Source of the DNA: Amphiscolops sp. MND2022
Lineage: Eukaryota
Assembly (NCBI GenBank): GCA_964187785.1
Contig: OZ076413.1
Span: 52,576,001 to 52,640,000, forward strand
Direction: 5' to 3'
DNA length: 64,000 nt
The notes beneath the pieces are model-generated. The model did not search any database, had not been told where the DNA came from, and saw only the letters and a program-made list of their open reading frames with translations. A program made the position numbers and the translations under genes. Below are positions 20,896 through 42,733 of this stretch, one piece after another. Within the stretch, counting starts at the first letter, position 1. The number at the start of each line of letters is the position of its first letter.

Positions 20896-21165
20896 AGTAT
20901 CAAATTTGAATAAATAACCCTTGTCTAGTCATATACATGTAATACACCGTTCAAGTCCTGTCATCGAAGCTATATCTAAAGAAAATAGTCCATTAAAATG
21001 TTTTAGGGAATTACAGGTCAAAATTACTATATAGTAATTTTGACCTGTAATTCCCTAAAACATTTTAATGGACTATTTTCTTTAGATATAGCTTCGATGA
21101 CAGGACTTGAACGGTGTATTACATGTATATGACTAGACAAGGGTTATTTATTCAAATTTGATACT
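20896..21165. repeat. Perfect 270-bp palindrome (135-bp arms, no spacer)
   Basis: Exact reverse-complement symmetry around 21030/21031 (actat|atagt). Confidence 0.95.
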
Positions 21166-21547
21166 CACAACATCAAGACATACAAAGGAATCATTTGACT
21201 GAAATTAATTAAGGTTGAAAAGAAAATGGAAATTTACATGCAACAATAGCATGGCACCAATGAAATACGCGACAATAGCAACAATGGCGTCGAGAGAGAA
21301 GGTCTATTTTTAATGTTCTCAAAGGGGTTCATTGAATCCAAATTTGAATCAGTTCTATATTTGGTAGTGAGATTTTAATTGGGGAAGAAATTACGATCCG
21401 CTAATACTGAAAACGAGCGAGATTTGTTCAGGCCAAACATCCCCATACATGTAGTGCTTGGCTGGTGACAAGCGTTTTCTAGGAAATGGTTTGTTTCTGG
21501 ACCAGTGTAAGCTGCCAAACAACAGGATTACACAAACATTCTGAAGT

Positions 21548-24451: not shown

Positions 24452-24581
24452 TGTCGCGTTATGACTAACGCTTTAACAAACATAATTAGGTGCTAAAGTG
24501 CAGTGTATATTTAACTAATAAATACAGAAACAAACATGAACTAGAACTAACGTTTGTTTATGGGGGAGAGAGTTGTAGATA

Positions 24582-24805
24582 AAGATGGCGGCCATAAGGC
24601 GGCGGCCATAACGTGGTAATAATGATGATGAAGTACTGTGACGAGAAAGGAATTGCACAAGTGAAGAATTCTATATTATACCGCGTATATTTGAAATACG
24701 AAAACAGCTATGATTGGTGGCATGTAAACCATGCCTGCTACGCAGCGCACGATAAGAAACGCTTGGCTGTATATATACGGCCAACGCAGGCGAGGAGATT
24801 CACAC
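24582..24805 (+). promoter_or_regulatory. Putative LTR promoter: YY1/Pho-type site, TATA box and initiator
   Basis: AAGATGGCGGC at 24582-24592 plus a second GCGGCCAT; TATATATA at 24770-24777; TCA at 24800-24802, ~30 nt downstream. Confidence 0.5.
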
Positions 24806-25216
24806 ACTTATTGAAACGGACAGAGCTTAAACTTAAAAGCTCTCGTTTCTCTTCACTTCTCTTCCACTTCTCTCCCCTCACCCCTGCTCTTCTTTCTTAC
24901 TTTACCCCCTTTCCTCTCACTTTACTATTATCTTCCCCTTCAGACTTAGAAAGTCTATTTCTCGCCTTCACATTTCAATTCAGATTTCTATTTAACTCAA
25001 CAAAACTTCTTGCTTTATAACTCAGATCCAATGATTCTCTTTTAATCCTACCCTTGCATCTTAGAATATTTCTCCACTCATCCTTGATTTGACTTCAACT
25101 TCCAGAACCAATCTTCCCTTACAAGAAATTTCTAACTTAGAAATTTCTCTTCAATTTCGTCTCCGGTTTGGTGAGTCTGACTATTTAGACCTTTCAGTAG
25201 AGATTTCACTCTCTCT

Positions 25217-25461
25217 GAAACTTCAAATTTAGCTATTTTCCGCTGATTTCAATTCTGCGGTTGACAAAACTTTGACTTTAACTATTTTCCGCCGATATCA
25301 ATTCTGCGGTTGACAAAACTTCAAATTTAGCTATTTTCCGCTGATTTCAATTCTGCGGTTGACAAAACTTTGACTTTAACTATTTTCCGCCGATATCAAT
25401 TCTGCGGTTGACAAAACTTCAAATTTAGCTATTTTCCGCTGATTTCAATTCTGCGGTTGAC
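25217..25461 (+). repeat. 49-bp tandem repeat, alternating A/B variants (ABABA, 5 units) in the 5' LTR
   Basis: A=aaaacttcaaatttagctattttccgctgatttcaattctgcggttgac; B=aaaactttgactttaactattttccgccgatatcaattctgcggttgac. Confidence 0.95.
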
Positions 25462-26130
25462 AAAACTTTAACTTTGATTATTTTCATTAGAACTAAATAG
25501 TTCTATAAAGTTGACGTTACATAAACTCACATAAGAAAAGGGATGATTAAAATTTTAAAGTGCTATATTATGAAAAAGTCTTAATGCTATTCAATTTTCT
25601 ACTGAATAGAGACATCTAAATCAAAACTCTTCCGTTTAAAATAGTACGGATTTGTAAATTTTGTTTGAGAAAAAGATTTCCGAAGAAAAAGGGAAATTCT
25701 TATTATTTGTAAATAGTTTCATTTTCTTGAATGATAAATTGTAAAAGTTATATTACTTCTTCTTGTAAAGTGAAGTTGTAATCTTTATTAATCTGAGATT
25801 TGTAACAATTGAAAGAAATATGGCTATGTCCAGAAATTGTTCACTTTCAATATTCTCAACTCATTCGTAATTAAACATATTTATCCTCCATACATTTTCA
25901 GTAAACGGGAAGCTCATTTACAAACACCGCCTTGCGCGACTCACGCAATTTCTTTTGTTCGCACGTACACGCAAGGCACCCCTTTATCAGTAAGTTGCTA
26001 ATTTATTTATTGGGACTTATACTTGTTAAATCAATAACAGAACCGTCGCGAGATAGTACCTTGTAAAATGCAAACAAGGACTTGACAGATTAAAACTAAT
26101 AAACAAATTTCACCCATGCGTGCGACAAAC

Positions 26131-26147
26131 TGGTGCGACCAGTGAGG
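26131..26147 (+). promoter_or_regulatory. Primer-binding site
   Basis: TGGTGCGACCAGTGAGG 3 nt after the LTR; begins TGG, complementary to tRNA CCA. Cognate tRNA not assigned. Confidence 0.75.
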
Positions 26148-27164
26148 CACCTTTTTCTCTTGTAATAGAGAAGTAAATGAGCTATCTGTTAGAATCCCTA
26201 CTCTCAGAAGTAAGGGTTACTTACTTATTTCTCTTAACATTACTTCTAATTTTCTTCTTTCTCCTACTGCCTCAATATGTGGCTTCTCTAATCTATATAA
26301 ATCGTAAAACTGCTAGTAAATACTCTAACAGAATCTCTCCAGCCTAACAGCTTTGGGAAGAGTTTATGCACTACTCTCTTTCTTTCAATCCCCAAAACCA
26401 TTTGTTAGAAATGATTTACCTTTACGAAAATACTATGAGATTACCATCAGTCCTAAACAAGAATGAAACTGACTCTATACGCTTTATTTAAAGGCACAGT
26501 TGGGAAATTCACTCTAGTCCGGACGGACACAAATTAAGTAAAAGCCCGCCTAGGTCTCCTCGGAGGCTGTTTGAAGGCCGTGAGCCCAGTGGGTATCTTG
26601 GAACCTATGTAGCATTCCGAGTGGGAAACCTAGTATTCTAGTGATAGTACCCAAGTGATTGCATGATAGTGATCTGGGCCCCACGCACTTAATCCTAAAG
26701 ACGAGAGTAACTCCCTCTGTGAACTAGCAGTAGTTATTTTCCTAAAGTTAAAGAAAGGCTCAACGAGCGGATGAAAGACCTAGTGGACTGACTGTACTCT
26801 TCATAGGTTTTCTTTGGGTTAACTCGGAGGATTGGTATACCCCGAACTACCCTTTTTACGATAATCTCAACACTACTGGGATTTGTAAGTATCCCCTAAA
26901 CTGTGGAATCAGAGTACAAAATATAGGAAATGAGCCTAACTTCGACCGAGAAGTGCTATTTTCATTTTTGCTAGCAGCGTATTAAGGATTTTATGATTTG
27001 TCAGACCTGTCTAATAATTATCACTATTAGAATCATAGTACAAACAATTTTTACTTTAACTCTTTGCTGTTATTCTCAAAAGCCAAGAGTATCATACCTC
27101 ATAGAGTCTTTGGCTTATTGTTCTTTGCTTCATCTTCTATCCTTTATAATCTCAATAGCTCACA

Positions 27165-28619
27165 ATGGCTGCGCAAAATTATTTGGCTTATCCAGACCTC
27201 GGCAGAGACCAATTCACGGGAACAGACCCAGATCAAGATCCTGAACAATTTATACAGCTAATTGAAAAGAAGTTCCGTTTCTCTCACGGTGATACCCCAG
27301 CAAACGGAGCAGCACTTGACGACTACAACTTCAGGAGAAAATCCTACTTTGCTACACTACTAAGAGGACCAGCAGCGGAGTGGTTCGAGACAAGTATCAC
27401 AGACGCTAACACCTGGCAAGAAATCAGAGAAAGGTTCATCACAAGATTCGCAGATGGCCGAAATAAATTCAGACACAGATTGGAAGCAGAACATGTCACC
27501 AGAAGAGATGGAGAAGAGATAAAGAATTTTCTACACAGAATCAAAATTGTTGTGGGGAAAGGCTGGCCAGATGATCTTGCCGGCGTCGCACAAAATGACA
27601 GAAACGCAGAAAGAGCAGCACAAGACCGACAAAGAAGACAAAGGTGCATCGACTACTCACTGAGAGGCCTAAGACCTCCAAAACTGAGAGAAAAGGCACA
27701 CGAATATTTAATGGATCACCCGAATGCAACCTGGGAACAATTCTCCCAAGCTGTAATAAACAAAGACCTCTCCTACACGGTAACTACCGCCCTAACTGGC
27801 GGAGAATCACATTCAGACCCACTCATACAAGAAATGCGAGACGACCTGAAGGGAATCAAACTACAAATCAAAGAACAGATGAATAACACAATCAACGCAG
27901 TAGAGAAAACTGTAGACCCTAATGCTACAGGTCGAAGAATGGCCACACGATTCTGTGGCTACTGCCGAACAAATGGGCACACACCTAACTGGTGCAGAAA
28001 GAAGATGAGAGATGAAGAAGTGAAGAAGGTTCAAAACGAAGCTAACCCAGAAAGAAGAATAACATTCACCAACGACTACAACAAAAGAACTGGACCTGAA
28101 CATGGCTCTAGATTTCAACCAAGATTACCAGATTCAGAAATCAGAAAACATATAGCTGTGGCACATCAACTAGCACTGGCTGGAGCTATGCAGTCAAACC
28201 CTGCCTGGAATCAATACGATAGACCACAAAGAAAAAATTTCAACCCAGAACGCCGACCTACGAATACAAGAGTCAATCCTGGTAACCAAAGATTTTCACA
28301 AGAAGGGAGAAGACCCTTCCTAAACAATTCTAACAACTCCAGAAGTGTTTCCCCTGGACCCCAAAGAGCAAGATCTCCGTTCAACTTCAACAGAGACCAG
28401 TCTAGCTCCTTTAATCGCAACATACAACCTCTTCCACCAAGAAATAACTCAGTTTTTCAAAGACCACTAGACAGAAACGAAAGACCCAACACTCCAACTC
28501 AATCTTACGAGCAAAGATTCCCAAAAACTAATGACATAGGAAGATCCAACACAGTACAGTTCTTAGAAACCGACTACTCGGTGAACTCTATTGCCGATTT
28601 CCGCCCTTTAAACTACTAA
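27165..28619 (+). CDS. gag: Gag (484 aa): Ty3/gypsy capsid plus one CCHC zinc knuckle and an N/R/P-rich tail
   Basis: LLRGPAAEWF...TWQEIRERFITRF capsid pattern; CGYCRTNGHTPNWC = C-x2-C-x4-H-x4-C. Confidence 0.93.
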   Translation: MAAQNYLAYPDLGRDQFTGTDPDQDPEQFIQLIEKKFRFSHGDTPANGAALDDYNFRRKSYFATLLRGPAAEWFETSITDANTWQEIRERFITRFADGRNKFRHRLEAEHVTRRDGEEIKNFLHRIKIVVGKGWPDDLAGVAQNDRNAERAAQDRQRRQRCIDYSLRGLRPPKLREKAHEYLMDHPNATWEQFSQAVINKDLSYTVTTALTGGESHSDPLIQEMRDDLKGIKLQIKEQMNNTINAVEKTVDPNATGRRMATRFCGYCRTNGHTPNWCRKKMRDEEVKKVQNEANPERRITFTNDYNKRTGPEHGSRFQPRLPDSEIRKHIAVAHQLALAGAMQSNPAWNQYDRPQRKNFNPERRPTNTRVNPGNQRFSQEGRRPFLNNSNNSRSVSPGPQRARSPFNFNRDQSSSFNRNIQPLPPRNNSVFQRPLDRNERPNTPTQSYEQRFPKTNDIGRSNTVQFLETDYSVNSIADFRPLNY

Positions 28620-28696
28620 GGTCTCCGAAAAATAGAAATAGCAGCAGTGCCCCTCTAAAATTTAGTCTTAATCTTTATTATTTTGCTGCCGGAGAC
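28607..28696 (+). promoter_or_regulatory. -1 programmed ribosomal frameshift signal
   Basis: T TTA AAC heptamer in the gag frame just before the gag stop; 7-nt spacer; GTCTCCG/CGGAGAC and GCAGCA/TGCTGC stems; pol is in the -1 frame and open from 28535. Confidence 0.8.
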
Positions 28697-31600
28697 TCAC
28701 AAAAAGATAGTGGCTTAGAAATCGAATTTCTACTAGACACTGGGGCAACATCTTCAATCATCAACTACAGGACCTTTAGAGAACTTTGCCAGTTTCAACA
28801 AGACCTAGAACTTAGTAGAAGCAATAACACAACACGGAACTACTCTGGGCAGATCATCCCTATGATGGGATACATCACCCTCAAACTCTACTACGATTCC
28901 GATGGACAACATAACTTCCCATTAACAGTCTGGATAACAGAGATGAAAACCCAAAACCTCCTTGGAATGAATTTCTGCCAAGAACAAGTTAACAAAATAC
29001 ACTTTGATCTTCCTGGCATAGAACTCAAAAGACTTATAAATACTTTCTGCTATGGTAGCCTACAACTCAACAAATGTTACCCCTATATATCACAAATTCT
29101 CTCAGTCAGAATTCCTCACTCAATGTATATCGAACCAAAGACGACAAGATGTTACAAATTCGCACCAGAAAACACTAATAACTCATTTCCTCCTGGATCT
29201 ACGTTCCTACCGAACAGGAAGGCAGTTTCTACTGGACTTAACTTCATAAATGTCCTCTGCACACGATTTGAGAAGACTTTACCAATCGTCATGGAAAACA
29301 ACAAAAACCATACAATCACCTTAGTAAAAGGAACTATCGGATACTCAATGCTTGACGTATTAGACCAAGAAATTCCGAAATACCAAATTAGAAACCCGAC
29401 AGAACTCGCATATGCTATCCTAAACGAAAACGAAGAATACAACGACTGTTTCCTATTACACTCTACCATTCCTTCACAAGATATGAACGATTGCCTCAGA
29501 ATAGAAGGAGGAAACTCGAAAACAATACTCAGCAGACCAGACCCTATCATCATCTTCGTCCCGGCCGACCTAAAGCCAGCCAAAGGCTTCTCAAAAGAAA
29601 TCCTAACGAAAATACCTTCACTTAAGGATACATGCGCAAAACAGAAACCACAGAAAGGAGAAACCATACCCTACTGGGACGAAACTCTGAAACGATTTAT
29701 ATATGTTCTGATTACGAAAGCAAAATCAAAAGACAAGATTGACCCACAATTACTAGTTCAATCTCTCGAAACTCTAAAAGCACACGCCAAAATGAGCGGC
29801 ATCAAAACTATATCCATGCTACGGGAAGCCTCAGAGCTAGAAGACTTCCAATGGCAAGACGTCACTCAACTCATTCAAGACGTATTTGCATACTCAGAAA
29901 TACAACTCCGAATTTATACAAGAAACGAACTAGATGTCTATGCCATGACTACAAGAGGAGACCCCGAATACGTACTAGAAGATGAGATACAACAATTTTC
30001 CGAGCAATTTCATCTCAAACATAGAGAGCTGGAGACAGACTTCACAAGCGACGCAAAGTCCTGTCAACCACCCTGCGATGAGCAATTTAAAATCTTCAGG
30101 CCAAAAGAAGACAACGAACGACTGATCGAGTACTACCTTCAGTATCAAAATAAAGAAGCAGTGCGATACATTAAAGAATTCGACTTTCGCTACTCAGACC
30201 TCACAGACGAAGAACTGGTTCTCCTAATAGACTTACTAATGGACGCAAGAGATGTATACTCCCAACACAAATTTGACGTAGGGAAAACCAGACAAAAATT
30301 TAACATTAAACTAGAACCTGGAGCAATTCTAAAGAGACAGAGACCCAGCAAAGTACCACTTCACCTACGAGAAAAGCTAGAGAAGCTACTCACACAACTC
30401 AAAGACGCTGATATCATCAGAGAAATGGGCGACGATGAAGAAATGGGATCCTTATTTGTGAATCCTATTATACTACAACCAAAACATGACTATGTCAAGC
30501 TGATCATAGATGCGAGATATCTAAACTCGGTGACAGATCTAACAAATTATTCCTGGCCCTTAGAACCGATCCAAACCATAATGACACTAATAAATGGAAA
30601 CATCTTCTCAGTAAGTGATCTCTCCTGTGCATTTCACCAAGTCCCATTAGACGAGCCCACGCAAAAACTCACCAGCTTCATCATTGGCGGAAAACAATAC
30701 ACCTTCACCAGGGGATTCTATGGACTCAAGGGATTACCAAGCTTCTTTAGCAGAATGATGACTATCCACTTCGAACCCCTCATCAAAAGGAAACAGGCAA
30801 TTACATACATCGACGACACGTTGATGCAAGCCAAAAACAAACAAGAAATGTTCACGGTAATTCAAGAATACCATAACTTACTGCGGAAAGCCGGACTCAA
30901 GGCAGCACCAGATAAGACACTCTTCTTCTTAAGGAAAGTCAAGTTTTTGGGACACGTGATAGCAGCCGAAGGAATACAACCCGTCGCAAAACGAGTAAAA
31001 GACCTACACAATCTCAAATCACCAAAGACCAAAACCGAAGTGAAAAGCTTCTTAGGAGCTTTGGGCTTCTATAGCTGCTACATCAAGAATCTTCATGTCG
31101 ATAGTCGACCTTTTTACGAACTCACCAAGAAAGATACAAATTTTTGCTGGAACCAAGAACACGAAGACCTTTTCCAGGAAATAAAGAAAAGAATTACCGA
31201 AGACACAGTGCTCGCAATACCCTCGACAAAATACCCCTTTCACATACACGTCGACTCGTCAAACGTTGGGACAGGATGTATCCTCATCCAACAATTCCCA
31301 GAAGGGAAACGGATCATTTCCTTCAACTCAAGAGTTTTCGCAAAGGAAGAACAAAAGATGTCCACACTACACAGAGAATTATGTGGCATAGTCTCAGCTC
31401 TTCAGACGTATGAACACTACATCATCGGATCTCGCTTCCCCATCTACCTATACTGTGATCACAAGCCGATTCTTTATCTCTGGGGAAGAAAGGGACAAAT
31501 TTCACCCCGTTTTTTCAGGTACCAAGTAATTATATCTAAATTCCCGAATCTCAAGATAATTTGGACTCCAGGAAGCAACCTAGCCTTCCCTGATATACTC

Positions 31601-33715
31601 AGTCGAAACGTCTCCATCGAGGAACACAAGAAACATCAACTCAGTCACAAAGTCATCCCAACTGACATACACTTTTTCGACGAACATGGAACCCAAGTAC
31701 ACTACAAAATCAAACACGAAGAAAATGAAGAGACATCCAAGAACGACTTTTACCCCATCTTGTACGAGAAGGGAAAAGAACGGAAAGTACTTCATCTCCA
31801 AAATGATGGGAATAACTTCACAGTTAACTCTATCTACGAGGAACCTAACCTGCCGAAAGTAGAGTCAGCACAGAGTTGCCTCGACGCTGGAAGAGAACTT
31901 GGAAAATTCGAAGAACTAAGACTCAGGTCAGGAACACGGGATAGCACTTCGGATTTATCACAAAACACTTACAGCTCCATCAACAGTGATACGGATGACG
32001 GAGCCCTCACAGACAATCAGAGTCAAGAAATAAACGAGACCAACTACGAGCTCAACACAGAAGATCCCATCGCACGTAACCCAAGTCTTCCCAAAAACGC
32101 GAAGGCAATAGAACACCCCGATCTACCTACAGATTCAACTGAAAAACAAAAGACACCAACACAGGAACTTGTCAGACAACTTGATAAACTATCCAAAGAG
32201 GTAGAACTAAACGTTACAACGATCTTACAAGAACAAATAAATGACCCGGTACTCAGCGTGGTCCGACAATGGGTAAGAACAGGAAACAAACCCGAACCAA
32301 AATCACCAGAGTTACAACACTCAAAAGGCCTCATGCGTTACTTTCAGGAATTCGACAGATTATCTATAGAAGGCCAAGGAAACCTCCTTTGTTATAACGA
32401 GCCAACTGATGACCCAACAGACGAGAATCTGAGAATCTGTCTACCTCTCTCTCTATTTTTAGCTTGCTTTCGTATGGGACATTACAACGACCTCGGCGGC
32501 CACATGGGAGCAGAAAAGTCCTTCCTCAATGCTAAGAGATTTTACTACTGGCCAGGGATGCACAACTGGATCTGTGCCCTCACACAAGATTGCGTTAGCT
32601 GCCAATCTAACAAATCCAAACAACGGAGAAACAACGAAGTCCCACTGGAAGACTGCGAAACCGAAACTCAAGTATTCAGAACCATCCACATTGATCACAA
32701 AGGACCCCTCAATCCTCCCAGTCGTGGAAATTCACATTGCCTTCTGATCATCGACGCCTTCTCACGTTACCTGATGGCATACCCAGTCAGAGACACAGGA
32801 GCACAATCTACAATCAATGCGATGGAAAAATGGATTATGCACTATGGCATCCCTCAATCTATCGTACATGATAGAGGAACAGCTTTCGTGAACACTGAAT
32901 TCGTCAATTGGACTAAAGAGTTTGGCATTACACTTCGACCAAGAACCGCACACTCACCCTGGACAAATGGCAAAGTAGAAACTCAAAATCAACACATTGC
33001 AAGATACTGGAGAAACTTCCTAAACGAATCAGGAAACAACTGGGCCCAACTAGCTGCCAAATTTGCATTCGCCCACAACACAAGCGTCAACTACACGACT
33101 GGAAAGACCCCCTACGAGATAGTGTTTTGCAATAAACCACAGATACCTATGAGTCTGAAGCTGGGACTCTACAGGAACAAAAACAAGAACTGCAAATCAC
33201 AATTCTGTCAAGGATTACCTCCTCATTGCCATAGCGAAAACCAAGTCAAAAACGAACTACTAAATGGACTATTACGACCACAACTATCACAAAGCTTATT
33301 GGAACGAGAAACAGCCTTCAAAAAGGTCTACTCATCCACATATGAAAAGTGCAGAAAACAAACAGCTCAATCACACGCCTACAGGAACAGATTTAAACTT
33401 GGGAACCACCTCAATATTGGACAAAAGGTTCTGCTAGAGAACCATCGAAAAGACCTCTCCAAAAGCCAAAAACTCCAACAACTGCGACTAGGACCCTTTA
33501 CGGTTACCAAACGAATTACAAATACAACTTACCAAATAATGGAAGATCAAAACCCCGTGAATCTCCGAACTGTACATAGGAACCATCTAATAGAATACTT
33601 TCCTAAAGAAGAAACACTCCCCCCTCTTATCGAAGAATACACTACTCCCCACCGTGGAGACACGGATTTTTATAACAATCTTGTCAAAGGAAGAATTGAA
33701 CAACTTAATGTTTAA
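28608..33715 (+). CDS. pol: Pol: protease - macrodomain - RT - RNase H - integrase (Gag-Pol fusion; ORF-track ATG at 28862 lies downstream of the protease active site)
   Basis: FLLDTGATSSII (~28727-28762, in frame upstream of the ATG); YIDD at 30806-30817; RNase H VDSS...RELCG...CDHK...DILSR; IN H-H/C-x2-C, D-x35-E (HDRG...GKVE) and GPF motif. Confidence 0.95.
29501..29920 (+). other. TARG1/OARD1 (Poa1p-like) macrodomain inside Pol, between PR and RT
   Basis: RFIYVLITK...LVQSLETLKAHAKMSGIKTISMLREASELEDFQWQDVTQLIQDVFAYSEIQLRIYT aligns by eye, ungapped, to recalled human TARG1 RYIYYLITK...[56 protein letters not shown]. Confidence 0.85.
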
Positions 33716-34117
33716 GAACCACAAAAACTCGGAGACCTCTGCATATTGCCAGTACGGAATCAACAAAACCAAATACTTGCCCGCAAAAGAACGCAAACCC
33801 CCCAGAGCACAGACTCTGGTATCATCTCTCCAGAAAATCAGTTGTTGTCAACTCCCAAGACTCCCGATCAGCCTTCGACATCACATCCTCAAAACGCAGC
33901 AACCCCTATCCTGACGTTAACTCAACGTCAACCAACTCCAGCACCCCCAACTAACACCCCGGCATCGTCTACCAAGTCAACGACTCCCTTGCAAGAGTTA
34001 CGAAAGGCTGTTGCCCGCCAAATAGAGAGAAATCCACGTTATCAGCGAGCACAACCCAATCAACCAGCACGACAGTCCAAACTTCGTGAAAGGACTAGAA
34101 TTGGTTACAAAGAATAA
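33716..34117 (+). CDS. In-frame P/T/Q-rich continuation of Pol beyond a single TAA (probable integrase tail)
   Basis: Same frame as pol, open for 133 codons, ends RYQRAQ...KLRERTRIGYKE, resembling basic gypsy IN C-termini. Confidence 0.55.
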   Translation, partial: EPQKLGDLCILPVRNQQNQILARKRTQTPQSTDSGIISPENQLLSTPKTPDQPSTSHPQNAATPILTLTQRQPTPAPPTNTPASSTKSTTPLQELRKAVARQIERNPRYQRAQPNQPARQSKLRERTRIGYKE

Positions 34118-34124
34118 CCTTACT

Positions 34125-34511
34125 ATGCCGTGCCATAAAGTCTATCTAAACTTGCCTTGGCAAGTCCCGCGAGAACTCCAGTCCTTAGGAATTCTGCAGG
34201 TTACGATTACTAAAATCTACTGGACCTACAAAAACAAAATAGTTAGAATTTGTTTCTACTCCAACGACCCAGATCCTAGCCCACATAAACAACCTACGCC
34301 TAGAAAATCTAACCTTCATATACACCCAGAATCACCTACTTTCGCCCGCTTATATCAACACTTAGCCTATTATGCCGTCACCCACCATGACCCTATCCTA
34401 GAGGAACTACTATCCTACATGCCTACCCTGATACCTGACCTACAACCTTCATTACCTAACACACAAAAAGACTTATTCTGCTGTTCTACTATCTCCTCGC
34501 CTAGCTCCTAG
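34125..34511 (+). CDS. Accessory ORF A (128 aa), unknown; first of four putative paralogues
   Basis: ATG 7 nt after the Pol-tail stop; shares I-x2-I...h-x-h-x-h and S-x2-[FYA]-x2-L-x3-[LF] motifs with ORFs B-D. Confidence 0.6.
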   Translation: MPCHKVYLNLPWQVPRELQSLGILQVTITKIYWTYKNKIVRICFYSNDPDPSPHKQPTPRKSNLHIHPESPTFARLYQHLAYYAVTHHDPILEELLSYMPTLIPDLQPSLPNTQKDLFCCSTISSPSS

Positions 34512-34676
34512 CCGGATATTACCGCTTATTCGAAAAATATTATCTTTATTATTATTATTATTATTAGACTTTTTATCTATACAATTTGTGCAACCCCGAG
34601 AAGGAACTTACGAAAAGCAGCAAACACAAAAGCGTAGAAAAATAAAGTATTTCCTGGAGATGAGAGGCAATAATGC

Positions 34677-35339
34677 CTACTCAATCTCCAGGAAACCTCC
34701 CTTCTCTGCAAGTCGCCGCAGCTGAGCCGCCCGCTCCCCCATTGTCCACAATGAATAGAGGCGGGTCCACTGACCCCTCTCAAAACTAGTCAGCTGCGAG
34801 TAGCCACTTATGTAGGCTCGCAGCTGGAAGACGACTATTTCGCCGAGAGAGGACAGGAGAGTCTGCTCCCAACGGGCCCCCCAGTTAGCCCGCAAGAAAC
34901 TAGTTAGAGCATTTGGACCGGGAGGCCCAGAAACAGAAAACCCGGGGGTACCCTGAAGGGAACTAGTTAATGAAGCCCAGTTTTCTAGGCGGTCGATATC
35001 CCTATGGGTAAATAAACCCATAAAACTTTGATCCCCCGGGCTCTCCAAAACACCCTGCGAGATGGTAGAGGGAGCTTGCGGAAAAGGGCCACTAGTCCTC
35101 GGGGCCACAAACGCCACAAAAGACCCACCCCCAGAGGTCCCTGCCTGAGAACCTGATGACGCGGGAGCAGAAGAACTGCTGCGCGCTCCGCTCGACGAGG
35201 ACGGCCCAGCTGACGACGACGATTGTGGCGGCAAAGAGGTAGCGGCAGTGCCCGACACAGACCCTGGAGCAGTAGTCTCCTCATCGGTCGAGGATTCTTC
35301 GTAATAGTCGCTATAGTTGTTGTTGTTGTTGTTGCTCAT
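34677..35339 (-). CDS. Antisense accessory ORF (220 aa from MSNNNN; 231 aa from the upstream ATG at 35372), unknown
   Basis: Long ORF overlapping no sense gene; acidic/Ser-rich N-half, Trp-containing helical-looking C-half; TATAAA (minus, 35381-35386) upstream and AATAAA (minus, 34545-34550) downstream. Confidence 0.7.
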   Translation of the reverse strand: MSNNNNNNYSDYYEESSTDEETTAPGSVSGTAATSLPPQSSSSAGPSSSSGARSSSSAPASSGSQAGTSGGGSFVAFVAPRTSGPFPQAPSTISQGVLESPGDQSFMGLFTHRDIDRLENWASLTSSLQGTPGFSVSGPPGPNALTSFLRANWGARWEQTLLSSLGEIVVFQLRAYISGYSQLTSFERGQWTRLYSLWTMGERAAQLRRLAEKGGFLEIE

Positions 35340-35614
35340 CCCTAAATACAAATTTGATTTATTTAAAGTCATGCAAAATGTTTATAATTATTGATTGAAG
35401 TCAACCATATATGTATCACTATTCAACTTAGTCATCAGATATAAAATATAATATCCTACCCGGACATTTGTCTAGTTTACTACGACGACTCATGAAGTCG
35501 TAACCCTCTCTCCCCTACAAATTACCCCCAAAAACGCAATGAAATAACTGATGATTCCATTCTCAGATTTGCTATGTTTGATGCACACACGCCACAAGGC
35601 ATAACAGCTCACTG

Positions 35615-35836
35615 ATGATCATAATATTCAAAATTGACAACCGACTTTCCCAGATAACTGATATTCAGAAGGAACCCTCAACACAGAACATAATCATACA
35701 AGCCTACGCAATCGCAGAAGAAGAGAGTGAAACCTACACGTGTGTGCCAGCATCACCTATCTACCCACTACTGGAGAGTCTACTATATAATAACACACCT
35801 ACCGAAGTCTTCACAAGAGCCAAGTCAGTCCTTTAA
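35615..35836 (+). CDS. Accessory ORF B (73 aa), putative paralogue of A/C/D
   Basis: Shared motif; stop overlaps the ORF C start (TAATG). Confidence 0.5.
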   Translation: MIIIFKIDNRLSQITDIQKEPSTQNIIIQAYAIAEEESETYTCVPASPIYPLLESLLYNNTPTEVFTRAKSVL

Positions 35837-36231
35837 TGTCCTCTCCCGCAGTTGCCGTATTTCGAGGAAATAAGTACTACTTCCACACTCAATTTCAACC
35901 TCCGGTTCCTTGGAAACCCATACAACTCACGGGTGAATACGAAATACAGTCAATCTTTTACGAGATCACTACCTCGGCGATACAAGTCCGTATACTCACA
36001 CCAGAAGACAAAGAAGCACTAGTCCTCTTCCCTATTCACTTCGGGTCCAAGGAATACGCCTACCTATTCCTATCGTTCCAACAATACATACTCCAACACC
36101 CCGCCGTCCTTAAAGACAAGGCTTTCGACGACTTGGTTTATTTTATGGATATCACCCTAGTAACTAACCCCTTTGAAGAAGAGGTTAGAATCAAATATCT
36201 TCACACCCTAGTTGAGACCTATGATGTTTAA
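35836..36231 (+). CDS. Accessory ORF C (131 aa), putative paralogue
   Basis: Shared motif; TAATG coupling with B; overlaps ORF D by 11 nt. Confidence 0.65.
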   Translation: MSSPAVAVFRGNKYYFHTQFQPPVPWKPIQLTGEYEIQSIFYEITTSAIQVRILTPEDKEALVLFPIHFGSKEYAYLFLSFQQYILQHPAVLKDKAFDDLVYFMDITLVTNPFEEEVRIKYLHTLVETYDV

Positions 36232-36565
36232 AATACAACTCAAATTCCTCTGGCGTCACCCGGAAACAAACACACTTCTTGAGATCCTCTCTATAGCCTG
36301 GAAAGAGAGCGCCCCCGCACTTCAGATTGAACTCCACAGCCTCCGACCACATCAAACGGGACATTGGCTCATCCCTGTCGCCACAGACTCGACAGAAGCA
36401 GCAGATCTTGCGAAGGCGCTAACCGACTACAGGGAGATCGCTTACTTAGATCACGTTCACCCTCTGACCCTTCATCTCCTCAGCAAGTTAATCGATTTCC
36501 TCGACGCTCAGAGAGGTAACAAACACTCTCCCAGTCTAAAATCAATCAGTAATAACTACAGCTGA
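36221..36565 (+). CDS. Accessory ORF D (114 aa from MMFKIQ), putative paralogue
   Basis: Shared motif; ATG inside the last codons of ORF C. Confidence 0.6.
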   Translation: MMFKIQLKFLWRHPETNTLLEILSIAWKESAPALQIELHSLRPHQTGHWLIPVATDSTEAADLAKALTDYREIAYLDHVHPLTLHLLSKLIDFLDAQRGNKHSPSLKSISNNYS

Positions 36566-36611
36566 ACCTTCACAGATGGTTGAAGTTAGTTTCTTTTACT
36601 ATTTTTCTTCG

Positions 36612-37045
36612 GGCACTCTTTGAAAAGTAGTGAGGTTACTACTATAAAATTTTAACCTCCGCTTAGTGTCGTGCCAGCTAAGCTGCCGGTTTGATATTAC
36701 GGCTTGCCTTTTTACGGCCTTATTTCAGGATCCATAACATTAAACTAAACTAAAAGACAAATAAACTTCTCCTTCTCTTAGGTACGTGTGAACAGTAGTG
36801 AGGTTACTACTATAAAATTTTAACCTCCGCTTAGTGTTGTACCAGCTAAGCTGCCGGTTTGATATTACGGCTTGCCTTTTTACGGCCTTACTCCGAAACC
36901 TATACTTTAAACAAAAAACAACAATCTTTCCATAAGGCACTTTCCAATAGTAGTGAGGTTACTACTATAAAATTTTAACCTCCGCTTAGTGTCGTGCCAG
37001 CTAAGCTGCCGGTTTGATATTACGGCTTGCCTTTTTACGGCCTTA
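36612..37045 (+). ncRNA. Three copies of a ~110-nt structured RNA element (97-nt core) separated by unrelated spacers
   Basis: Cores at 36626-36722, 36794-36890, 36949-37045; helices AGTAG/CTACT, GAGGTTA/TAACCTC, GCTTAG/CTAAGC, GCCG/CGGC, and GGCAC/GTGCC, which co-varies to GGTAC/GTACC in copy 2. Confidence 0.7.
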
Positions 37046-37113
37046 CCGTGGATCCACATATCTATAAAAAACATTTTTCCTGATTGATTGTCAAAGACTG
37101 AAGAATTTCAGAA

Positions 37114-39261
37114 ATGAAATTATTTTACTTACTCTTTTTATGCGCCCATTACGCGCCCGTTGTGATATTACAACGTCCAACGCCAAACCTCGCTAGCGTT
37201 GCTAAAAAACTGCGAGTAACTCATTTCGACTGCGGCGAAATGACCCAAAATAAACTCTACGCATTGAATCAAGTTGAACAATGCAATGTGGCACCTGAAA
37301 ACTTAGAGGTAAGTCGTGCGAGCGTAACGTTATACACTAAACATTTCCGCCGCACTATCAACGCCACTATGTGCCGTGTGAAACATCAGAGTGAAGAATG
37401 GCATTGTGGTTATCACGACCACTCCAGTATGTCAATCCTACACGACGGAATCACCAGCGATCTTTCCCTGTCACCCGAAACCTGCAAGGCAATGGGTGAA
37501 GGCAAAGAAGTCATAATCCATGGACAACCCCTCAAATTTAAGAAAGGAGTGAAACAAGTACAGACGAGAAACGCCAAATACGGAAAGAGTTGGGACGGTG
37601 TACGCGACCCAGATACCCGAAATGAATGCAAGACAGGTGGCTGGATCAAAAGAGAAACATTCGAATCTCACATCCAAGATGCTGAATTATCAGTAAAAAC
37701 TCGAGATGGAAAAGTCCTGACTCCGTTTCAGATGGTCCTTCCCTGCCCCTTAGAACAACTAGGTTGCGAAACGACGTCACTGGACCCATACGCCTACACA
37801 TGGGCGGAGCCCGATAATTGCGTGCTTGCAGTACATAGGAAAGAAATCGTGAACATGATCAAACACGGATCTAACTACTATATTGTAAGCGGCAACGACT
37901 CCACTACCAAATTTTTATTCGAAGTCTACAACAGACCACAAAAGTATTGCAACAAACCAGACGATGTATACCCGACCAACTACGAATCCCTGTACGTTTC
38001 AATCCAACTTGGTGGCTTCGACATGACGTCCGGCAGACGACTCGGCATCTCCATGGGAGAGACATCTAAACTACAATATTATTCACCCGAAGATGGTTCT
38101 GCTAATGGCCGACTCCACCTCTTTCGAGGCCCGAGCGACCCCAACCCTAATACACCTCATTACCTCAACATGGATTACGAGTTACACCAAGGGACAAAGC
38201 TTGATTATCTCTTCTTTGAGAGCACTCGTCTCCTCGAAGCTTCAGAAATCCAGCTCCTCAAAGCACAATGCGAACAAGAAAGAACTCAAATCCTTACTAT
38301 TTTGATGCTATCAATGGAAAATCCTCGCCTCGCCGGATACATGCTCACGGGAAATCGCTCAATGTTCCTGAACACAGATGGCAGCCTCGCTTGGCTCTAC
38401 CACTGTCCGGAATCCCACTCACCTCTTCACACGATGAACCGATGCTACGACCGCATACCCATCTTCTACAAAGGAGTGGTTGCCTTCGTGGACCCAATCA
38501 CCCGACAGACCTATCCTAACGCGAACGCCCAAAATTGCAGCGATCGCATTAAGAACCTCTTTCAATTGGATATGGAAGACAAAGACTCCTGGTTTACCCT
38601 CACTCCTTCACCCGAACATCGCGACCGACCTGCTATCTTCGGACCCAAAGACATACAACCAATGATTACTAGATCCTTCCCTGGTTCACAAGACGCGGGA
38701 ATGTATACGCCTAAACAACTCTCAGAATTTTGGGACAACATCCTCATCAGCGCAGCGTCTCGCAACGCCCTCCAGAAGTTCTCACGAGAGCTCATCACAC
38801 CCTCAATGGCCCATAGTGGACCTGAATCTTTCGCGTATTATGCACCCCGTACAGATTTTTATGTTGACGGCATGATCTCACCCGATTACTTCAAAAATCA
38901 GTTCCTTGAAACATTTGGAAGTATATCTTACGTACTAGAACTCTGCGGCGCGTATTTTGGCGCCTTTCTTTTCATTAAGTTCGTAATAGATATCACGGTA
39001 CTCGTCTTCCGATACTTTGAACTTCGTCACCTCACAGGTAATACACTGAGCTTCACTAAAACATTGCTCAGTGCTTCGTACAATCTTTTCTTTACTTCAG
39101 TTTTAACTTCTGTATTCACCCCGCGGGCCCCTTACGAGGATAGCGTTGAAGATAAAAACGCGAAAACTGAAGATAATGGAAAAGAAGTAGAACTCCAAGC
39201 ACTGAAGAATAAGGAAGAATCACTTTATCCCTCAGTACAGAGCTTCGTAGCTCCAATATAA
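37114..39261 (+). CDS. env: Envelope glycoprotein (715 aa), class III fusion protein of the chuvirus/Monjiviricetes type
   Basis: Signal peptide; FDC...C...C-x10-CG-x2-DH N-terminus; YTW...NC; TKLDY; QCEQER...L...NP; CYDRIP...FVDP; AGMY; TM at aa ~604-632. This layout matches chuvirus-like G proteins as recalled. Confidence 0.8.
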   Translation: MKLFYLLFLCAHYAPVVILQRPTPNLASVAKKLRVTHFDCGEMTQNKLYALNQVEQCNVAPENLEVSRASVTLYTKHFRRTINATMCRVKHQSEEWHCGYHDHSSMSILHDGITSDLSLSPETCKAMGEGKEVIIHGQPLKFKKGVKQVQTRNAKYGKSWDGVRDPDTRNECKTGGWIKRETFESHIQDAELSVKTRDGKVLTPFQMVLPCPLEQLGCETTSLDPYAYTWAEPDNCVLAVHRKEIVNMIKHGSNYYIVSGNDSTTKFLFEVYNRPQKYCNKPDDVYPTNYESLYVSIQLGGFDMTSGRRLGISMGETSKLQYYSPEDGSANGRLHLFRGPSDPNPNTPHYLNMDYELHQGTKLDYLFFESTRLLEASEIQLLKAQCEQERTQILTILMLSMENPRLAGYMLTGNRSMFLNTDGSLAWLYHCPESHSPLHTMNRCYDRIPIFYKGVVAFVDPITRQTYPNANAQNCSDRIKNLFQLDMEDKDSWFTLTPSPEHRDRPAIFGPKDIQPMITRSFPGSQDAGMYTPKQLSEFWDNILISAASRNALQKFSRELITPSMAHSGPESFAYYAPRTDFYVDGMISPDYFKNQFLETFGSISYVLELCGAYFGAFLFIKFVIDITVLVFRYFELRHLTGNTLSFTKTLLSASYNLFFTSVLTSVFTPRAPYEDSVEDKNAKTEDNGKEVELQALKNKEESLYPSVQSFVAPI

Positions 39262-39307
39262 AGCCAAAAACAATTTCAAGTTCATTCATTCATTAGTTTA
39301 CTTTTAG

Positions 39308-39889
39308 AATCTAGAACCACTATTCGACCTACCAAGCCTGGACGACGATACCCTGGATCCTATCCCAGAAAGTGACCTAGAAATCGAACCCCTATCTCCT
39401 TCAGACTTTTTGACACCAGACTCGTCTACAACAATTACCTTCCTTCCCGACCCCCCTGACTCAACGGTCCCATCATCACCCTCAAAATCTCCAACTCCAA
39501 CCTTCACACCAACGCCATCCGACCAACTCCCCTTTCCTTTGTCATTCACAGGAGACATACCACCAATCCCGTCAACACAACATCCTCCTAGATTTGGTGG
39601 AAAGGACATCAGAAGAACCACACCACAAAAACACCATCATGAATGGAACAACGAGATAGCCGATGAAGCACCCTTACATAAGCAACATAAAAGGGAATAC
39701 TTCACTAGAAAAGCCAGATACGTTAAAAAACCTAGGTTTAACGCAAACCTAAAGTATTCTCTACTCCCACAGTTTTCAACCTGGAAAATCGTCTTTTGGG
39801 ACAACAAAAGACAAGAATACACTATTGAGAACCCTGCACTGAAGGGACAGCGGCTGACAGTTCCCTTAAGATCCATATCTGCACAATGA
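39308..39889 (+). CDS. ORF E: ATG-less second exon (193 aa), acidic/Pro-Ser-Thr-rich then basic; predicted to be spliced to env codons 1-65
   Basis: Frame opens immediately after acceptor tttacttttAG (39307); phase-0 donor GAG|GTAAGT at 37308/37309. Confidence 0.6.
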   Translation, partial: NLEPLFDLPSLDDDTLDPIPESDLEIEPLSPSDFLTPDSSTTITFLPDPPDSTVPSSPSKSPTPTFTPTPSDQLPFPLSFTGDIPPIPSTQHPPRFGGKDIRRTTPQKHHHEWNNEIADEAPLHKQHKREYFTRKARYVKKPRFNANLKYSLLPQFSTWKIVFWDNKRQEYTIENPALKGQRLTVPLRSISAQ

Positions 39890-40824
39890 GCCAAAAATTA
39901 AACCCAAATGCCACCCCCTTCATCCCAAAACACAAACCCTACCTACCGATCCCTAACCCCGACTGGCCACCTATGCCTGAAGAAAACGATCAAGAAGAAC
40001 ATGCAAACCTCGAAGGAGTGGAAAGACTAAATATGTGGATTAGTGAATGGGAGAAATCAACTAGTACCTATAACCAGGGAACAAAAAGCACACCGCTTCG
40101 AAAGTCCTTCCCTTTAACGGACATTAATCAACCCCAAAAGAAGTTAGAAAACCGAATCAAACTGCTATGTACCTCAATCGAAGAGGCACGAGATAAACGT
40201 CAACAATTGGAAGTCACTATCTTCGATTTGCGAGCGACAATCAAACACCAAAGCTCCCTCCTCAGCAGAGCGAGCCAGATTGAAGCGAACGGTAAAGATT
40301 TTATCACTTGGCAAGTTTCCGCCTTCTCCACACTTTACCGAAAAGCAAGGACCTCTCCAGACGATCCCTTTCACAACATCAAAAACAGCTTCGCGAGCCC
40401 TATTTACCCAACATACCTATCAGGCTGCAAAATTTCCTTCAGAATATTCCCTTACGGGATAAACATCTTCCGTGGGACCCACTCTTCTATTAGCTGTGAA
40501 CTTCATTATAGCGACTTCACTCACCCACAAACATGGCCCTTTGATAAAACAGTAGAAGTCGAAATCCTTGATCAGAAGGACGAAGGCAACAAGTGGTCCA
40601 CACTTTTCCCAATCAACCCCCACAACCACGAAGATACCCTTCACAATCTCTACACGCACCCGAACTTCCTCAAAGAAGACTTCATCCCTCATACGAAGTT
40701 ACTTGTCAACTTCAGAGAAGCATTCCTAAACAATGACTCTATAATATTTAGAATCAAATTTAAAGAACCTTCCCCTAAGTCACTCGCGCTACATAACTCC
40801 CCCTCCTTTCAGTCTGACCCATAA
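39886..40824 (+). CDS. TRAF-like protein (312 aa): PAM2 motif, coiled coil, TRAF-C/MATH domain; no RING or zinc fingers
   Basis: FITWQVSAFS...SPIY...GCKISFRIFPYG...RGTHSSI...WPFDKTVEVEILDQ...FLNNDSIIFRI parallels TRAF FIWKISDFS...SPAFY...GYKMCLRIYLNG...RGTHLSL...WPFNQKVTLMLLDQ...YVRDDAIFIK; KLNPNATPFIP at aa 4-14. Confidence 0.88.
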   Translation: MSQKLNPNATPFIPKHKPYLPIPNPDWPPMPEENDQEEHANLEGVERLNMWISEWEKSTSTYNQGTKSTPLRKSFPLTDINQPQKKLENRIKLLCTSIEEARDKRQQLEVTIFDLRATIKHQSSLLSRASQIEANGKDFITWQVSAFSTLYRKARTSPDDPFHNIKNSFASPIYPTYLSGCKISFRIFPYGINIFRGTHSSISCELHYSDFTHPQTWPFDKTVEVEILDQKDEGNKWSTLFPINPHNHEDTLHNLYTHPNFLKEDFIPHTKLLVNFREAFLNNDSIIFRIKFKEPSPKSLALHNSPSFQSDP

Positions 40825-40849
40825 CTCATTTATTTTCTTTCATCCTGCC

Positions 40850-40860
40850 AGGGGGGTGAG
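40850..40860 (+). promoter_or_regulatory. Polypurine tract
   Basis: AGGGGGGTGAG one base before the 3' LTR. Confidence 0.85.
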
Positions 40861-40861
40861 C

Positions 40862-42733
40862 TGTCGCGTTATGACTAACGCTTTAACAAACATAATTAGG
40901 TGCTAAAGTGCAGTGTATATTTAACTAATAAATACAGAAACAAACATGAACTAGAACTAACGTTTGTTTATGGGGGAGAGAGTTGTAGATAAAGATGGCG
41001 GCCATAAGGCGGCGGCCATAACGTGGTAATAATGATGATGAAGTACTGTGACGAGAAAGGAATTGCACAAGTGAAGAATTCTATATTATACCGCGTATAT
41101 TTGAAATACGAAAACAGCTATGATTGGTGGCATGTAAACCATGCCTGCTACGCAGCGCACGATAAGAAACGCTTGGCTGTATATATACGGCCAACGCAGG
41201 CGAGGAGATTCACACACTTATTGAAACGGACAGAGCTTAAACTTAAAAGCTCTCGTTTCTCTTCACTTCTCTTCCACTTCTCTCCCCTCACCCCTGCTCT
41301 TCTTTCTTACTTTACCCCCTTTCCTCTCACTTTACTATTATCTTCCCCTTCAGACTTAGAAAGTCTATTTCTCGCCTTCACATTTCAATTCAGATTTCTA
41401 TTTAACTCAACAAAACTTCTTGCTTTATAACTCAGATCCAATGATTCTCTTTTAATCCTACCCTTGCATCTTAGAATATTTCTCCACTCATCCTTGATTT
41501 GACTTCAACTTCCAGAACCAATCTTCCCTTACAAGAAATTTCTAACTTAGAAATTTCTCTTCAATTTCGTCTCCGGTTTGGTGAGTCTGACTATTTAGAC
41601 CTTTCAGTAGAGATTTCACTCTCTCTGAAACTTCAAATTTAGCTATTTTCCGCTGATTTCAATTCTGCGGTTGACAAAACTTTGACTTTAACTATTTTCC
41701 GCCGATATCAATTCTGCGGTTGACAAAACTTCAAATTTAGCTATTTTCCGCTGATTTCAATTCTGCGGTTGACAAAACTTTGACTTTAACTATTTTCCGC
41801 CGATATCAATTCTGCGGTTGACAAAACTTCAAATTTAGCTATTTTCCGCTGATTTCAATTCTGCGGTTGACAAAACTTTGACTTTAACTATTTTCCGCCG
41901 ATATCAATTCTGCGGTTGACAAAACTTCAAATTTAGCTATTTTCCGCTGATTTCAATTCTGCGGTTGACAAAACTTTGACTTTAACTATTTTCCGCCGAT
42001 ATCAATTCTGCGGTTGACAAAACTTCAAATTTAGCTATTTTCCGCTGATTTCAATTCTGCGGTTGACAAAACTTTAACTTTGAATTTTTTCATTAGAACT
42101 AAATAGTTCTATAAAGTTGACGTTACATAAACTCACATAAGAAAAGGGATGATTAAAATTTTAAAGTGCTATATTATGAAAAAGTCTTAATGCTATTCAG
42201 TTTTCTACTGAATAGAGACATCTAAATCAAAACTCTTCCGTTTAAAATAGTACGGATTTGTAAATTTTGTTTGAGAAAAAGATTTCCGAAGAAAAAGGGA
42301 AATTCTTATTATTTGTAAATAGTTTCATTTTCTTGAATGATAAATTGTAAAAGTTATATTACTTCTTCTTGTAAAGTGAAGTTGTAATCTTTATTAATCT
42401 GAGATTTGTAACAATTGAAAGAAATATGGCTATGTCCAGAAATTGTTCACTTTCAATATTCTCAACTCATTCGTAATTAAACATATTTATCCTCCATACA
42501 TTTTCAGTAAACGGGAAGCTCATTTACAAACACCGCCTTGCGCGACTCACGCAATTTCTTTTGTTCGCACGTACACGCAAGGCACCCCTTTATCAGTAAG
42601 TTGCTAATTTATTTATTGGGACTTATACTTGTTAAATCAATAACAGAACCGTCGCGAGATAGTACCTTGTAAAATGCAAACAAGGACTTGACAGATTAAA
42701 ACTAATAAACAAATTTCACCCATGCGTGCGACA
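40862..42733 (+). repeat. 3' LTR (1872 bp)
   Basis: Copy of the 5' LTR, 196 bp longer because of four extra 49-bp units. Confidence 0.97.
41627..42067 (+). repeat. 49-bp tandem repeat, ABABABABA (9 units) in the 3' LTR
   Basis: Counted directly; 4 x 49 = 196 bp accounts for the whole LTR length difference. Confidence 0.95.

Follow-up and report, generated by a model that had tools for sequence, protein, structure and literature searches.

Complex retroviruses of vertebrates such as HTLV, BLV, and the foamy viruses carry accessory open reading frames (ORFs) around env, an antisense gene, and cis-acting RNA elements, and such accessory-gene complexity is usually taken as a mark of vertebrate retroviruses. 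Here we describe an element of 18,282 bp that shares this layout but has Ty3/gypsy-type provirus anatomy, located at positions 24452-42733 of a 64,000-nucleotide stretch of the genome of Amphiscolops sp. MND2022 (contig OZ076413.1, positions 52,576,001 to 52,640,000; hereafter the window). Beyond gag, pol, and env, it holds seven extra ORFs (A, an antisense ORF, B, C, D, E, and a TRAF-like ORF) and a structured RNA repeat. With a probability of roughly 0.6, we read it as a recently inserted copy of an active env-bearing Ty3/gypsy family whose complex-retrovirus-like layout would have been built apart from the vertebrate retroviruses.

Ty3/gypsy elements with an env of the gB or chuvirus type are widespread across animal phyla (PMC13524379). 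According to the main text of that survey, the gB-type env has a class III HSV/gB fold with five domains and fusion loops, and an ancient group of the gB-env errantiviruses has an RNase H plus a "mini" domain in the bridge region. The present element shares with these errantiviruses the gag-pol-env order, the long terminal repeats (LTRs), a primer-binding site (PBS), near-identical copies, and a chuvirus-like fusion-protein env, but differs in that genes and structured RNA take up 3.0 kb between pol and env, with a further 1.6 kb after env. The words TRAF, macro, and accessory are absent from the main text of the survey, whose first filters kept regions of at most 10 kb and pol-env gaps of at most 1 kb, with 3-5 kb past pol in some phyla (PMC13524379). 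A member of the family described here could sit in its element list. More generally, elements of this kind would tend to escape a survey in which length or the pol-env gap is capped.

Burro/GYPSM1 of planarians is likewise large, belongs to gypsy, and shows env homology; it carries a MATH/TRAF-C domain, which one relative has as a separate accessory ORF (PMC6431247). As described there, Burro exceeds 30 kb, has env in frame between gag and pol within a polyprotein of about 5000 aa, and carries BIR, BCL2-like, and ankyrin domains. Our element, in which Pfam scans detected none of the three, has a separate env and, at 18,282 bp, does not belong with Burro. The passages on Burro mention no macrodomain, and the same source puts ORF capture between pol and env on record and gives foamy-like fish endogenous retroviruses of up to 17 kb (PMC6431247). 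The Troyka elements, with CG...CG ends and a 3-bp duplication (PMC12440569), differ from the TG...CA ends and 4-bp duplication found here, and the retroviral reverse transcriptase (RT) and class I envelope of the Retroviridae are lacking.

In the literature, the repeat databases Repbase, Dfam, and GyDB being outside the search, we found no description of this gene set and precedents for parts only. Cer1/CERV of Caenorhabditis elegans is an LTR retrotransposon with a spliced accessory gene for the export of unspliced genomic RNA (PMC10309623); it has one regulator against the seven ORFs here, and the precedent is functional and not based on homology. Tor of Oikopleura, a marine env-bearing gypsy-type element, makes env by splicing or from an internal promoter, and no accessory block or RNA repeat is described in the parts of the report devoted to it (PMC4402516). 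Capture of extra ORFs is shared with bdelloid rotifer LTR elements, which have one (ORF3) each (PMC5408684), and a chuvirus glycoprotein with Anakin, a BEL/Pao element with one extra ORF (bioRxiv 10.1101/2020.02.15.950899). The proposal of the initial annotation that the system may be undescribed agrees with this search as regards the gene set but was overstated, as env-bearing gypsy elements are widespread (PMC13524379), extra ORFs lying between pol and env or after them are known, and TRAF occurs in Burro (PMC6431247). It is also possible that a family with this gene set has been deposited but not discussed.

A Recently Active Family with a Conserved Gene Order

All components of the provirus-like structure proposed earlier, namely the target-site duplication, near-identical LTRs, a PBS-like stretch, and a polypurine tract (PPT), were located (Table 1). 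The LTRs end in TGTCGC...GCGACA, and the two differ by 3 mismatches in 1676 aligned bases (99.8% alike) and by one 196-nt gap that equals two units of a 98-bp tandem array. The TG...CA ends, a duplication within the 4-6 bp typical of the group, the PBS and PPT, the order protease-RT-RNase H-integrase, and a Ty3-like RT make the element, by the features tested, a member of Ty3/gypsy (Metaviridae). ARAGORN detected no tRNA in the 64-kb window.

We searched the 1.07-Gb assembly (1929 contigs), scoring only the best candidates, and the copy numbers are lower bounds. The 7.3-kb downstream block had at least 12 full-length matches at ≥99% among the 36 listed, and the gag-pol half at least 12 among the 23 listed; at least 11 places, on several contigs, were shared by both halves at ≥99%. 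Multiple near-identical copies contain intact gag, pol, and env, and when the ORFs were checked in seven near-identical sister copies, 54 of 56 were matched over essentially their full length with no stop; only TRAF in one copy (L002) and A in another (L008) were not. The 99.8% likeness of the LTRs and the near-identical full-length copies indicate that the family has been recently active and is still spreading, in agreement with the initial annotation.

Twenty stretches were fetched by their TRAF match; 16 proved to be full-type elements and 4 a satellite described below. The order integrase, pol tail, A, antisense, C, D, RNA, env, E, TRAF was found in 16/16 full-type loci, with E missing in one (L017), and the accessory block is thus not a one-off, the outcome that would have spoken against the original proposal. 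Two distant loci (L015 and L016) keep the order at 82-86% identity in integrase and 31-55% in the accessory proteins. Two families found through env alone (L029 and L030; env 60% and 57%) have E and TRAF downstream of env and two or three A/C/D-like small ORFs upstream, but neither the antisense ORF nor the RNA unit is matched there. Matching proteins are also present in a public protein collection.

Selection was estimated as dN/dS (Nei-Gojobori) against up to 11 loci, drawn from the 22 then available outside the family of the seven sister copies. The values for accessory ORFs were mostly 0.05-0.3 (Table 1), showing purifying selection on all seven, which together with the conserved order bears out the accessory block of the initial annotation. 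One fetched copy (L026:225-1258) has a second C-D-RNA segment immediately upstream of the integrase region. The breakpoint falls within an RNA unit, a pattern that template switching or a nested insertion would produce.

Table 1. Features of the element in window coordinates
Feature	Position	Strand	Notes
Target-site duplication, 5' copy	24448..24451		GTCT
5' LTR	24452..26127	+	1676 bp, TG...CA
5' LTR internal signals	24770; 25990; 26098		TATA-like run; donor-like site; AATAAA
Tandem array in 5' LTR	25218-25485		49/98-bp units
PBS-like stretch	26131..26148	+	begins TGG; identical start in four satellite copies
Leader between 5' LTR and gag	26149..27164	+	11 upstream ATGs; donor-like site 26885
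gag	27165..28619	+	484 aa; one CCHC knuckle, YPDL near N-terminus
pol frame	28535..33715	+	in-frame stop at 33713-33715, private to this copy
Slippery heptamers, overlapping	28604..28613	+	CCCTTTA / TTTAAAC; gag/pol overlap, pol in -1 frame
TARG1/OARD1-like macrodomain	29540..29930	+	in pol, protease-RT interval; phmmer
pol C-terminal tail	33716..34117	+	133 codons, Ser/Thr/Pro-rich; severed in this copy
ORF A	34125..34511	+	128 aa; dN/dS 0.06-0.19; hhalign E 0.0017
Antisense ORF	34677..35372	-	231 aa; dN/dS 0.18-0.37
Gap between divergent antisense ORF and B	35373..35614		TATAAAA at 35440; acceptor-like site ending 35566
ORF B	35615..35833	+	72 aa; dN/dS 0.00-0.12
ORF C	35836..36231	+	131 aa; dN/dS 0.00-0.22; hhalign E 0.019
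ORF D	36221..36565	+	114 aa; dN/dS 0.05-0.17
RNA unit 1	36612..36722	+	H-type pseudoknot, two hairpins, long-range 5'-strand/loop pairing
RNA unit 2	36781..36890	+	two-sided change in long-range helix
RNA unit 3	36936..37045	+	ends ~70 nt upstream of env ATG
env	37114..39261	+	715 aa; Pfam PF24664
ORF E	39308..39889	+	193 codons, no ATG; behind acceptor AG 39306-39307
TRAF-like ORF	39886..40824	+	312 aa; ATG overlaps stop of E
PPT	40850..40860	+	
3' LTR	40862..42733	+	1872 bp; two 98-bp units more than 5' LTR
Target-site duplication, 3' copy	42734..42737		GTCT

gag, pol, and env

The stretch ahead of gag (26128-27164) is 1037 nt long and contains 11 ATGs, so that Gag is probably translated via internal entry, shunting, or splicing. 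Gag matches Retrotrans_gag at E 5.6e-5, just under the Pfam cut-off, and a -1 frameshift into pol is predicted at the overlapping heptamers. The pol frame encodes, in order, an aspartyl protease (DTG), a macrodomain, RT (YIDD), RNase H, an HHCC zinc finger, an integrase core, and an SH3-like C-terminal domain. Among solved structures, the RT is nearest to Ty3 (phmmer E 4e-33 for 4ol8, which we take to be Ty3 RT, and 2e-32 for Ty3-G 7q5b), with weaker matches to 8r0s (9e-26), Pr125Pol (4e-22), and p80 RT (3e-18). In contrast to complex vertebrate retroviruses, the RT is thus nearer to Ty3 than to retroviral (foamy virus, MLV) or caulimoviral RTs, and the env belongs to another family; the accessory genes showed no homology to theirs.

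The macrodomain, overlooked in the initial annotation, matches O-acetyl-ADP-ribose deacetylase 1 chains at phmmer E 1e-11 and has no match in the Pfam scan; our literature search found no TARG1-like domain in a gypsy pol. TARG1 has a catalytic Lys/Asp pair, in which the Asp takes part in catalysis, and a glycine loop. In the element, the Lys of ITK is retained, a Glu occupies the position of the TARG1 Asp, and the GCG motif is replaced. Binding of ADP-ribose, perhaps without catalysis, has about an even chance. A dUTPase-like domain suspected by eye between the protease and the macrodomain found no Pfam support.

The earlier description of gag, pol, and env as open applies to gag and env, but pol has an in-frame stop at 33713-33715, past the integrase C-terminal domain. 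The stop is private to this copy: pol reads through into 33716-34117 in 7/7 near-identical sisters and in 14 other copies, counting those in which the anchor was found. This frame (dN/dS 0.10-0.33), being continuous with pol in the sister copies, is therefore the tail of pol and not an accessory gene.

Residues 380-709 of env match Monjiviricetes_fusion (PF24664) at E 4.5e-33, and the protein has a hydrophobic N-terminus, 16 Cys, 4 NxS/T sites, and a transmembrane stretch at about 607-635. It contains no RxK/RR furin site and has no significant match among PDB sequences, and no conserved AG precedes its ATG. The element likely belongs to the gB-env group. The dN/dS values of env (0.04-0.17) and integrase (0.03-0.13) indicate similar constraint. 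Motifs such as the YPDL of Gag and the (L/I)YP of the env tail can serve ESCRT recruitment or sorting; the former is retained in L031, the sole other family reached (the L032 stretch missed gag), the latter in 25/32 env rows, and together they give hints of budding particles.

Two further env groups were observed. An env family of 850 members (P0004), for which this genome offers at best a 59% match, adjoins the lineage of the window in a quick tree built without named references, and this grouping implies relatives in at least one other assembly. In a large, more distant env family of this genome (G000:C6:54672918-54674939 and others), 59/61 scored matches hold at least one TAG within the match, in many cases a single one; this could reflect a stop common to the family or a site of read-through. 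The 2/61 without a TAG include L030.

Accessory Open Reading Frames

B is the most conserved accessory ORF, with 71% identity in the distant lineage, and the acceptor-like site before it is retained even in L015 and L016. The antisense ORF has an acidic and Ser-rich N-terminal half and a conserved C-terminal domain. Searches that included Pfam scans placed neither the antisense ORF nor B in a known family.

The small ORFs of L029 and L030 can be aligned with A, C, and D, and profile comparisons (hhalign) gave E values of 0.0017, 0.019, and 0.0011 with probabilities of 2-21%. A and D are likely paralogues in one unnamed small-protein family, and C is a probable member and the weakest link. A profile of 12 A/C/D-type sequences matched 76 cluster representatives at E ≤0.001, of which at least one (P0279) is evidently false. 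No significant Pfam or PDB sequence match was found for A, C, and D, and Atlas gave no usable match for D. The structure model of D has four strands followed by two helices (pLDDT 82). With Foldseek, it matched nothing in PDB or BFVD at E ≤0.001, Pur-alpha and MRP1/2 appearing only at E 0.5-0.7; with VIA, mainly a helical hairpin was matched (best Z 7.9, rmsd 2.8 over 55 residues). We propose that A, C, and D may be fast-diversifying small host-binding or RNA-binding proteins.

The acidic N-terminus of E is followed by a basic stretch, and its C-terminal domain is conserved; the acceptor-like site of E is conserved in the 7 close copies shown, and the dN/dS of E is 0.06-0.28. A sequence search returned 100 hits. 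The C-terminal domain models as a helix and a small barrel, for which the fold search listed Tudor, KOW, SH3, or chromo barrels in almost all of its top rows, at E 0.18 or worse and Z ≤3.2 (rmsd 2.9, 46 residues); we take this likeness as a lead only. An ETS-like domain considered for E was dropped once the structure model was made. Tentatively, E is best read as a nuclear regulator that combines an acidic region with a small barrel.

The TRAF homologue reported initially is real. The ORF matches TRAF-C/MATH in Pfam (PF22486, E 1.2e-9; PF21355, E 2.3e-8) and TRAF5 as its best PDB match (E 3.6e-6), and joins a probable coiled coil, seen by eye, to the TRAF-C/MATH domain; its dN/dS is 0.15-0.44. 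Pfam found no RING or zinc fingers in its 312 aa. The N-terminus has a PAM2-like motif at a Pfam E value of 0.0084, under the cut-off, which is also present in P0123, P0124, and L015. The chance that the RING-less protein acts as a decoy adaptor in host signaling, its most likely role, is about even.

The Structured RNA Repeat and a Satellite Element

Each RNA unit spans about 110 nt and is predicted to form a pseudoknot with stems of 5 bp and 7 bp and two hairpins, the 5' strand pairing with the loop of the first hairpin; the loops are invariant, and the tandem copies lie 155-168 nt apart. Covariation was assessed on 26 hand-picked units, 25 of the 50 found (some end-trimmed) and the middle unit of L015, excluding a stray window match at 57336 and most duplicates, with the structure drawn from the same sequences. 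Of 572 cells, 97.2% were paired, with two-sided change at 7/22 pairs but none in the 5-bp stem. None of 500 shuffles paired as highly, and slid partners were 23-55% paired. The long-range helix reached ≥5 bp in 22/30 distinct units compared with a shuffled mean of 14.6 (0/1000 as high) and is absent from the L015/L016 units. Both results uphold the triplicated RNA structure of the initial annotation. Six U-G cells at one pair point to RNA of the sense (+) strand. Rfam 15 gave 0 matches at the gathering threshold and at E up to 5.

The satellite, which the initial annotation missed along with the A/C/D paralogy, occurs in 4/20 fetched stretches (L013, L018, L019, and L020; for example, L018:2979-9538). 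It has about 3.1 kb between its LTRs, lacks gag and pol, and carries broken env and TRAF, and it shares the PBS, PPT, and LTR ends of the full-type elements, with LTR bodies that resemble different helper families and 2-4 RNA units. In all 4 copies, identity to the window reaches 93/95 to 97/97 in the best RNA core, whereas the env and TRAF remnants of L020 are at 74% and 69%. Such retention of the RNA core while env and TRAF decay is expected of a cis signal on genomic RNA.

The satellite also has a MATH-like ORF of its own (L018:5084-5629), which is broken in L013 but uninterrupted in L018-L020 and at 13 places (≥98%); Atlas called it MATH-like at 0.92 with low recognition, and Pfam had no match. 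A second MATH-like ORF lies between the antisense ORF and B in L015 (2770-3456), with a counterpart in L016; it is 51% identical to that of the satellite, and the window family has no such ORF. Weak relatives (22-25%) occur in several places as divergent pairs about 2.5 kb apart (G000:C8:11822443/11824918; C2:9950303/9952757; C6:31189336/31191784; C1:63547528/63549930).

By analogy with the direct repeats of RSV and the CTE, which are precedents for cis RNA signals (PMC9143442), the repeat may be a cis-acting signal for export or packaging of the genomic RNA; we favor this role without great confidence. A less probable alternative is that it serves env expression as a structured leader, either IRES-like or as a nuclease block that sets a subgenomic 5' end. 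The env ATG has no conserved acceptor of its own, the last unit begins 116-173 nt upstream of it, the repeat region holds 0-1 ATG in 9/9 loci (1 in the window), and several units start at a pyrimidine-rich AG, all of which suit a leader; yet satellites with a broken env keep the RNA core, and the units vary in number from 1 to 4, most having no ORF behind them. That the repeat is a self-cleaving ribozyme or the precursor of a trans-acting small noncoding RNA seems improbable. Its compact, multiply pseudoknotted fold with invariant loops in tandem copies would fit, but Rfam has no match, cleavage in mid-genome would sever the genomic RNA, and internal T4 runs argue against polymerase III transcription. 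The topologies of HDV-like, twister, pistol, and hammerhead ribozymes do not fit the unit. Some role other than these is more improbable still.

Discussion

In the life cycle we propose, LTR-driven full-length RNA would yield Gag and, by -1 frameshift, Gag-Pol, with tRNA priming and a 4-bp duplication upon insertion. RNAs spliced from the donor-like sites at 25990 or 26885 to the acceptors before B and E would supply accessory proteins and env, and an internal, possibly divergent, promoter near 35400-35440 would probably add accessory and env mRNAs. Env would act as a membrane fusogen, and particles would bud and pass between host cells, most likely from soma to germ line. The RNA repeat would be a cis export or packaging signal on the genomic RNA, resembling the RSV direct repeat, the TRAF protein a decoy adaptor, the macrodomain an ADP-ribose binder, and E a nuclear regulator.

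That the locus is an assembly artefact or a one-off chimera is so improbable that it can be set aside. The LTRs differ in the number of tandem units and one fetched copy has an internal duplication, but the many places matching both halves, the same gene order in diverged families, and matching proteins in the public collection refute it through copy number and synteny. A gypsy element that never leaves the cell or no longer does so, keeping env and accessories as cargo for intracellular or host-useful roles, would resemble retroviruses in layout only. Such an element would explain the lack of a furin site in Env and the spread of a satellite without gag, pol, or env to 13 places at ≥98%; particles and transmission are themselves predictions from sequence, and other gypsy elements, in rotifers and planarians, have cargo ORFs whose role is unproven (PMC5408684, PMC6431247). 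On the other hand, env is about as constrained as integrase, the (L/I)YP motif of its tail is largely retained, and gB-type env does not always retain a furin site, as stated in the survey text (PMC13524379). We consider this intracellular alternative unlikely. Only slightly less doubtful is the bolder view of a truly infectious invertebrate "complex retrovirus" of gypsy derivation, parallel to lentiviruses, HTLV, and foamy viruses. It would combine a class III fusogen, a pseudoknot response element read by an element-encoded small protein in the manner of Rev/RRE, E as a transactivator, an antisense regulator, counter-defence through TRAF and ADP-ribose, and a dependent satellite with its own MATH-like gene that borrows the ends and RNA signal of its helper.

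Our preferred reading, an active env-bearing gypsy family with an independently built complex layout, claims less: the likeness to complex retroviruses is observed in the layout, and regulation and infectivity are predictions. Several points weigh against it. Function is deduced from anatomy and evolution, as the element is known here from its sequence. Choosing loci by TRAF biases the synteny count toward complete blocks, and with pS near 0.7 several distant pairs are saturated, making dN/dS rough or undefined; against the nearly identical closest subfamily (L021), D has a dN/dS of 1.79, based on very few changes. The A/C/D paralogy leans on weak profile scores, with probabilities of 2-21%, and the macrodomain has lost the GCG motif and changed the TARG1 Asp to Glu. 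For the RNA, the covariation cells come from related copies and represent few independent events, the energy of nested folding does not stand out (z -0.8 and -1.7), and L029 and L030, from distant env families, have no RNA-unit match, meaning that the RNA is not needed throughout the clade. Conservation of the RNA could also have other causes in the satellite, which seems to swap RNA units with its helpers, so that conversion could explain it, as could a role of the RNA in the mRNA of the satellite's own intact MATH-like gene.

Gypsy elements with env and cargo and TRAF/MATH in gypsy (Burro) are already known; new here, within the literature searched, are the probable A/C/D family, the pol macrodomain, the pseudoknotted RNA, the satellite, and the seven-gene combination. 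Seven extra genes thus remain under selection, across lineages whose accessory proteins share 31-55% identity, in a gypsy element whose RT and envelope are of another kind, and a testable question is whether env-gaining retrotransposons converge on the same regulatory and counter-defence toolkit. A macrodomain in gypsy pol hints that ADP-ribosylation restricts retroelements in this host. The locus also supplies new material for study: an RNA fold that Rfam does not match, for which the satellite is a natural control, and three or four unannotated protein families.

Other Features of the Locus

A 132-aa ORF in each LTR is probably not a gene, being matched as an ORF in the closest subfamily only (1/11 loci). 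The host insertion site looks like older repeat debris: a 150-bp repeat, 84% identical between 21544-21692 and 24296-24444, ends just upstream of it. A perfect 270-bp palindrome without spacer at 20896-21165 may be real or an assembly fold-back. Decayed retroelement frames occupy 4235-6665 and 44896-47741 of the minus strand and are, judged by eye, presumably BEL/Pao-like and gypsy-like. Downstream of the element, the window contains related short arrays of 10/20-bp tandem units at 43701-43801 and 50322-50416 and a 173-bp tandem pair at 49811-50155.

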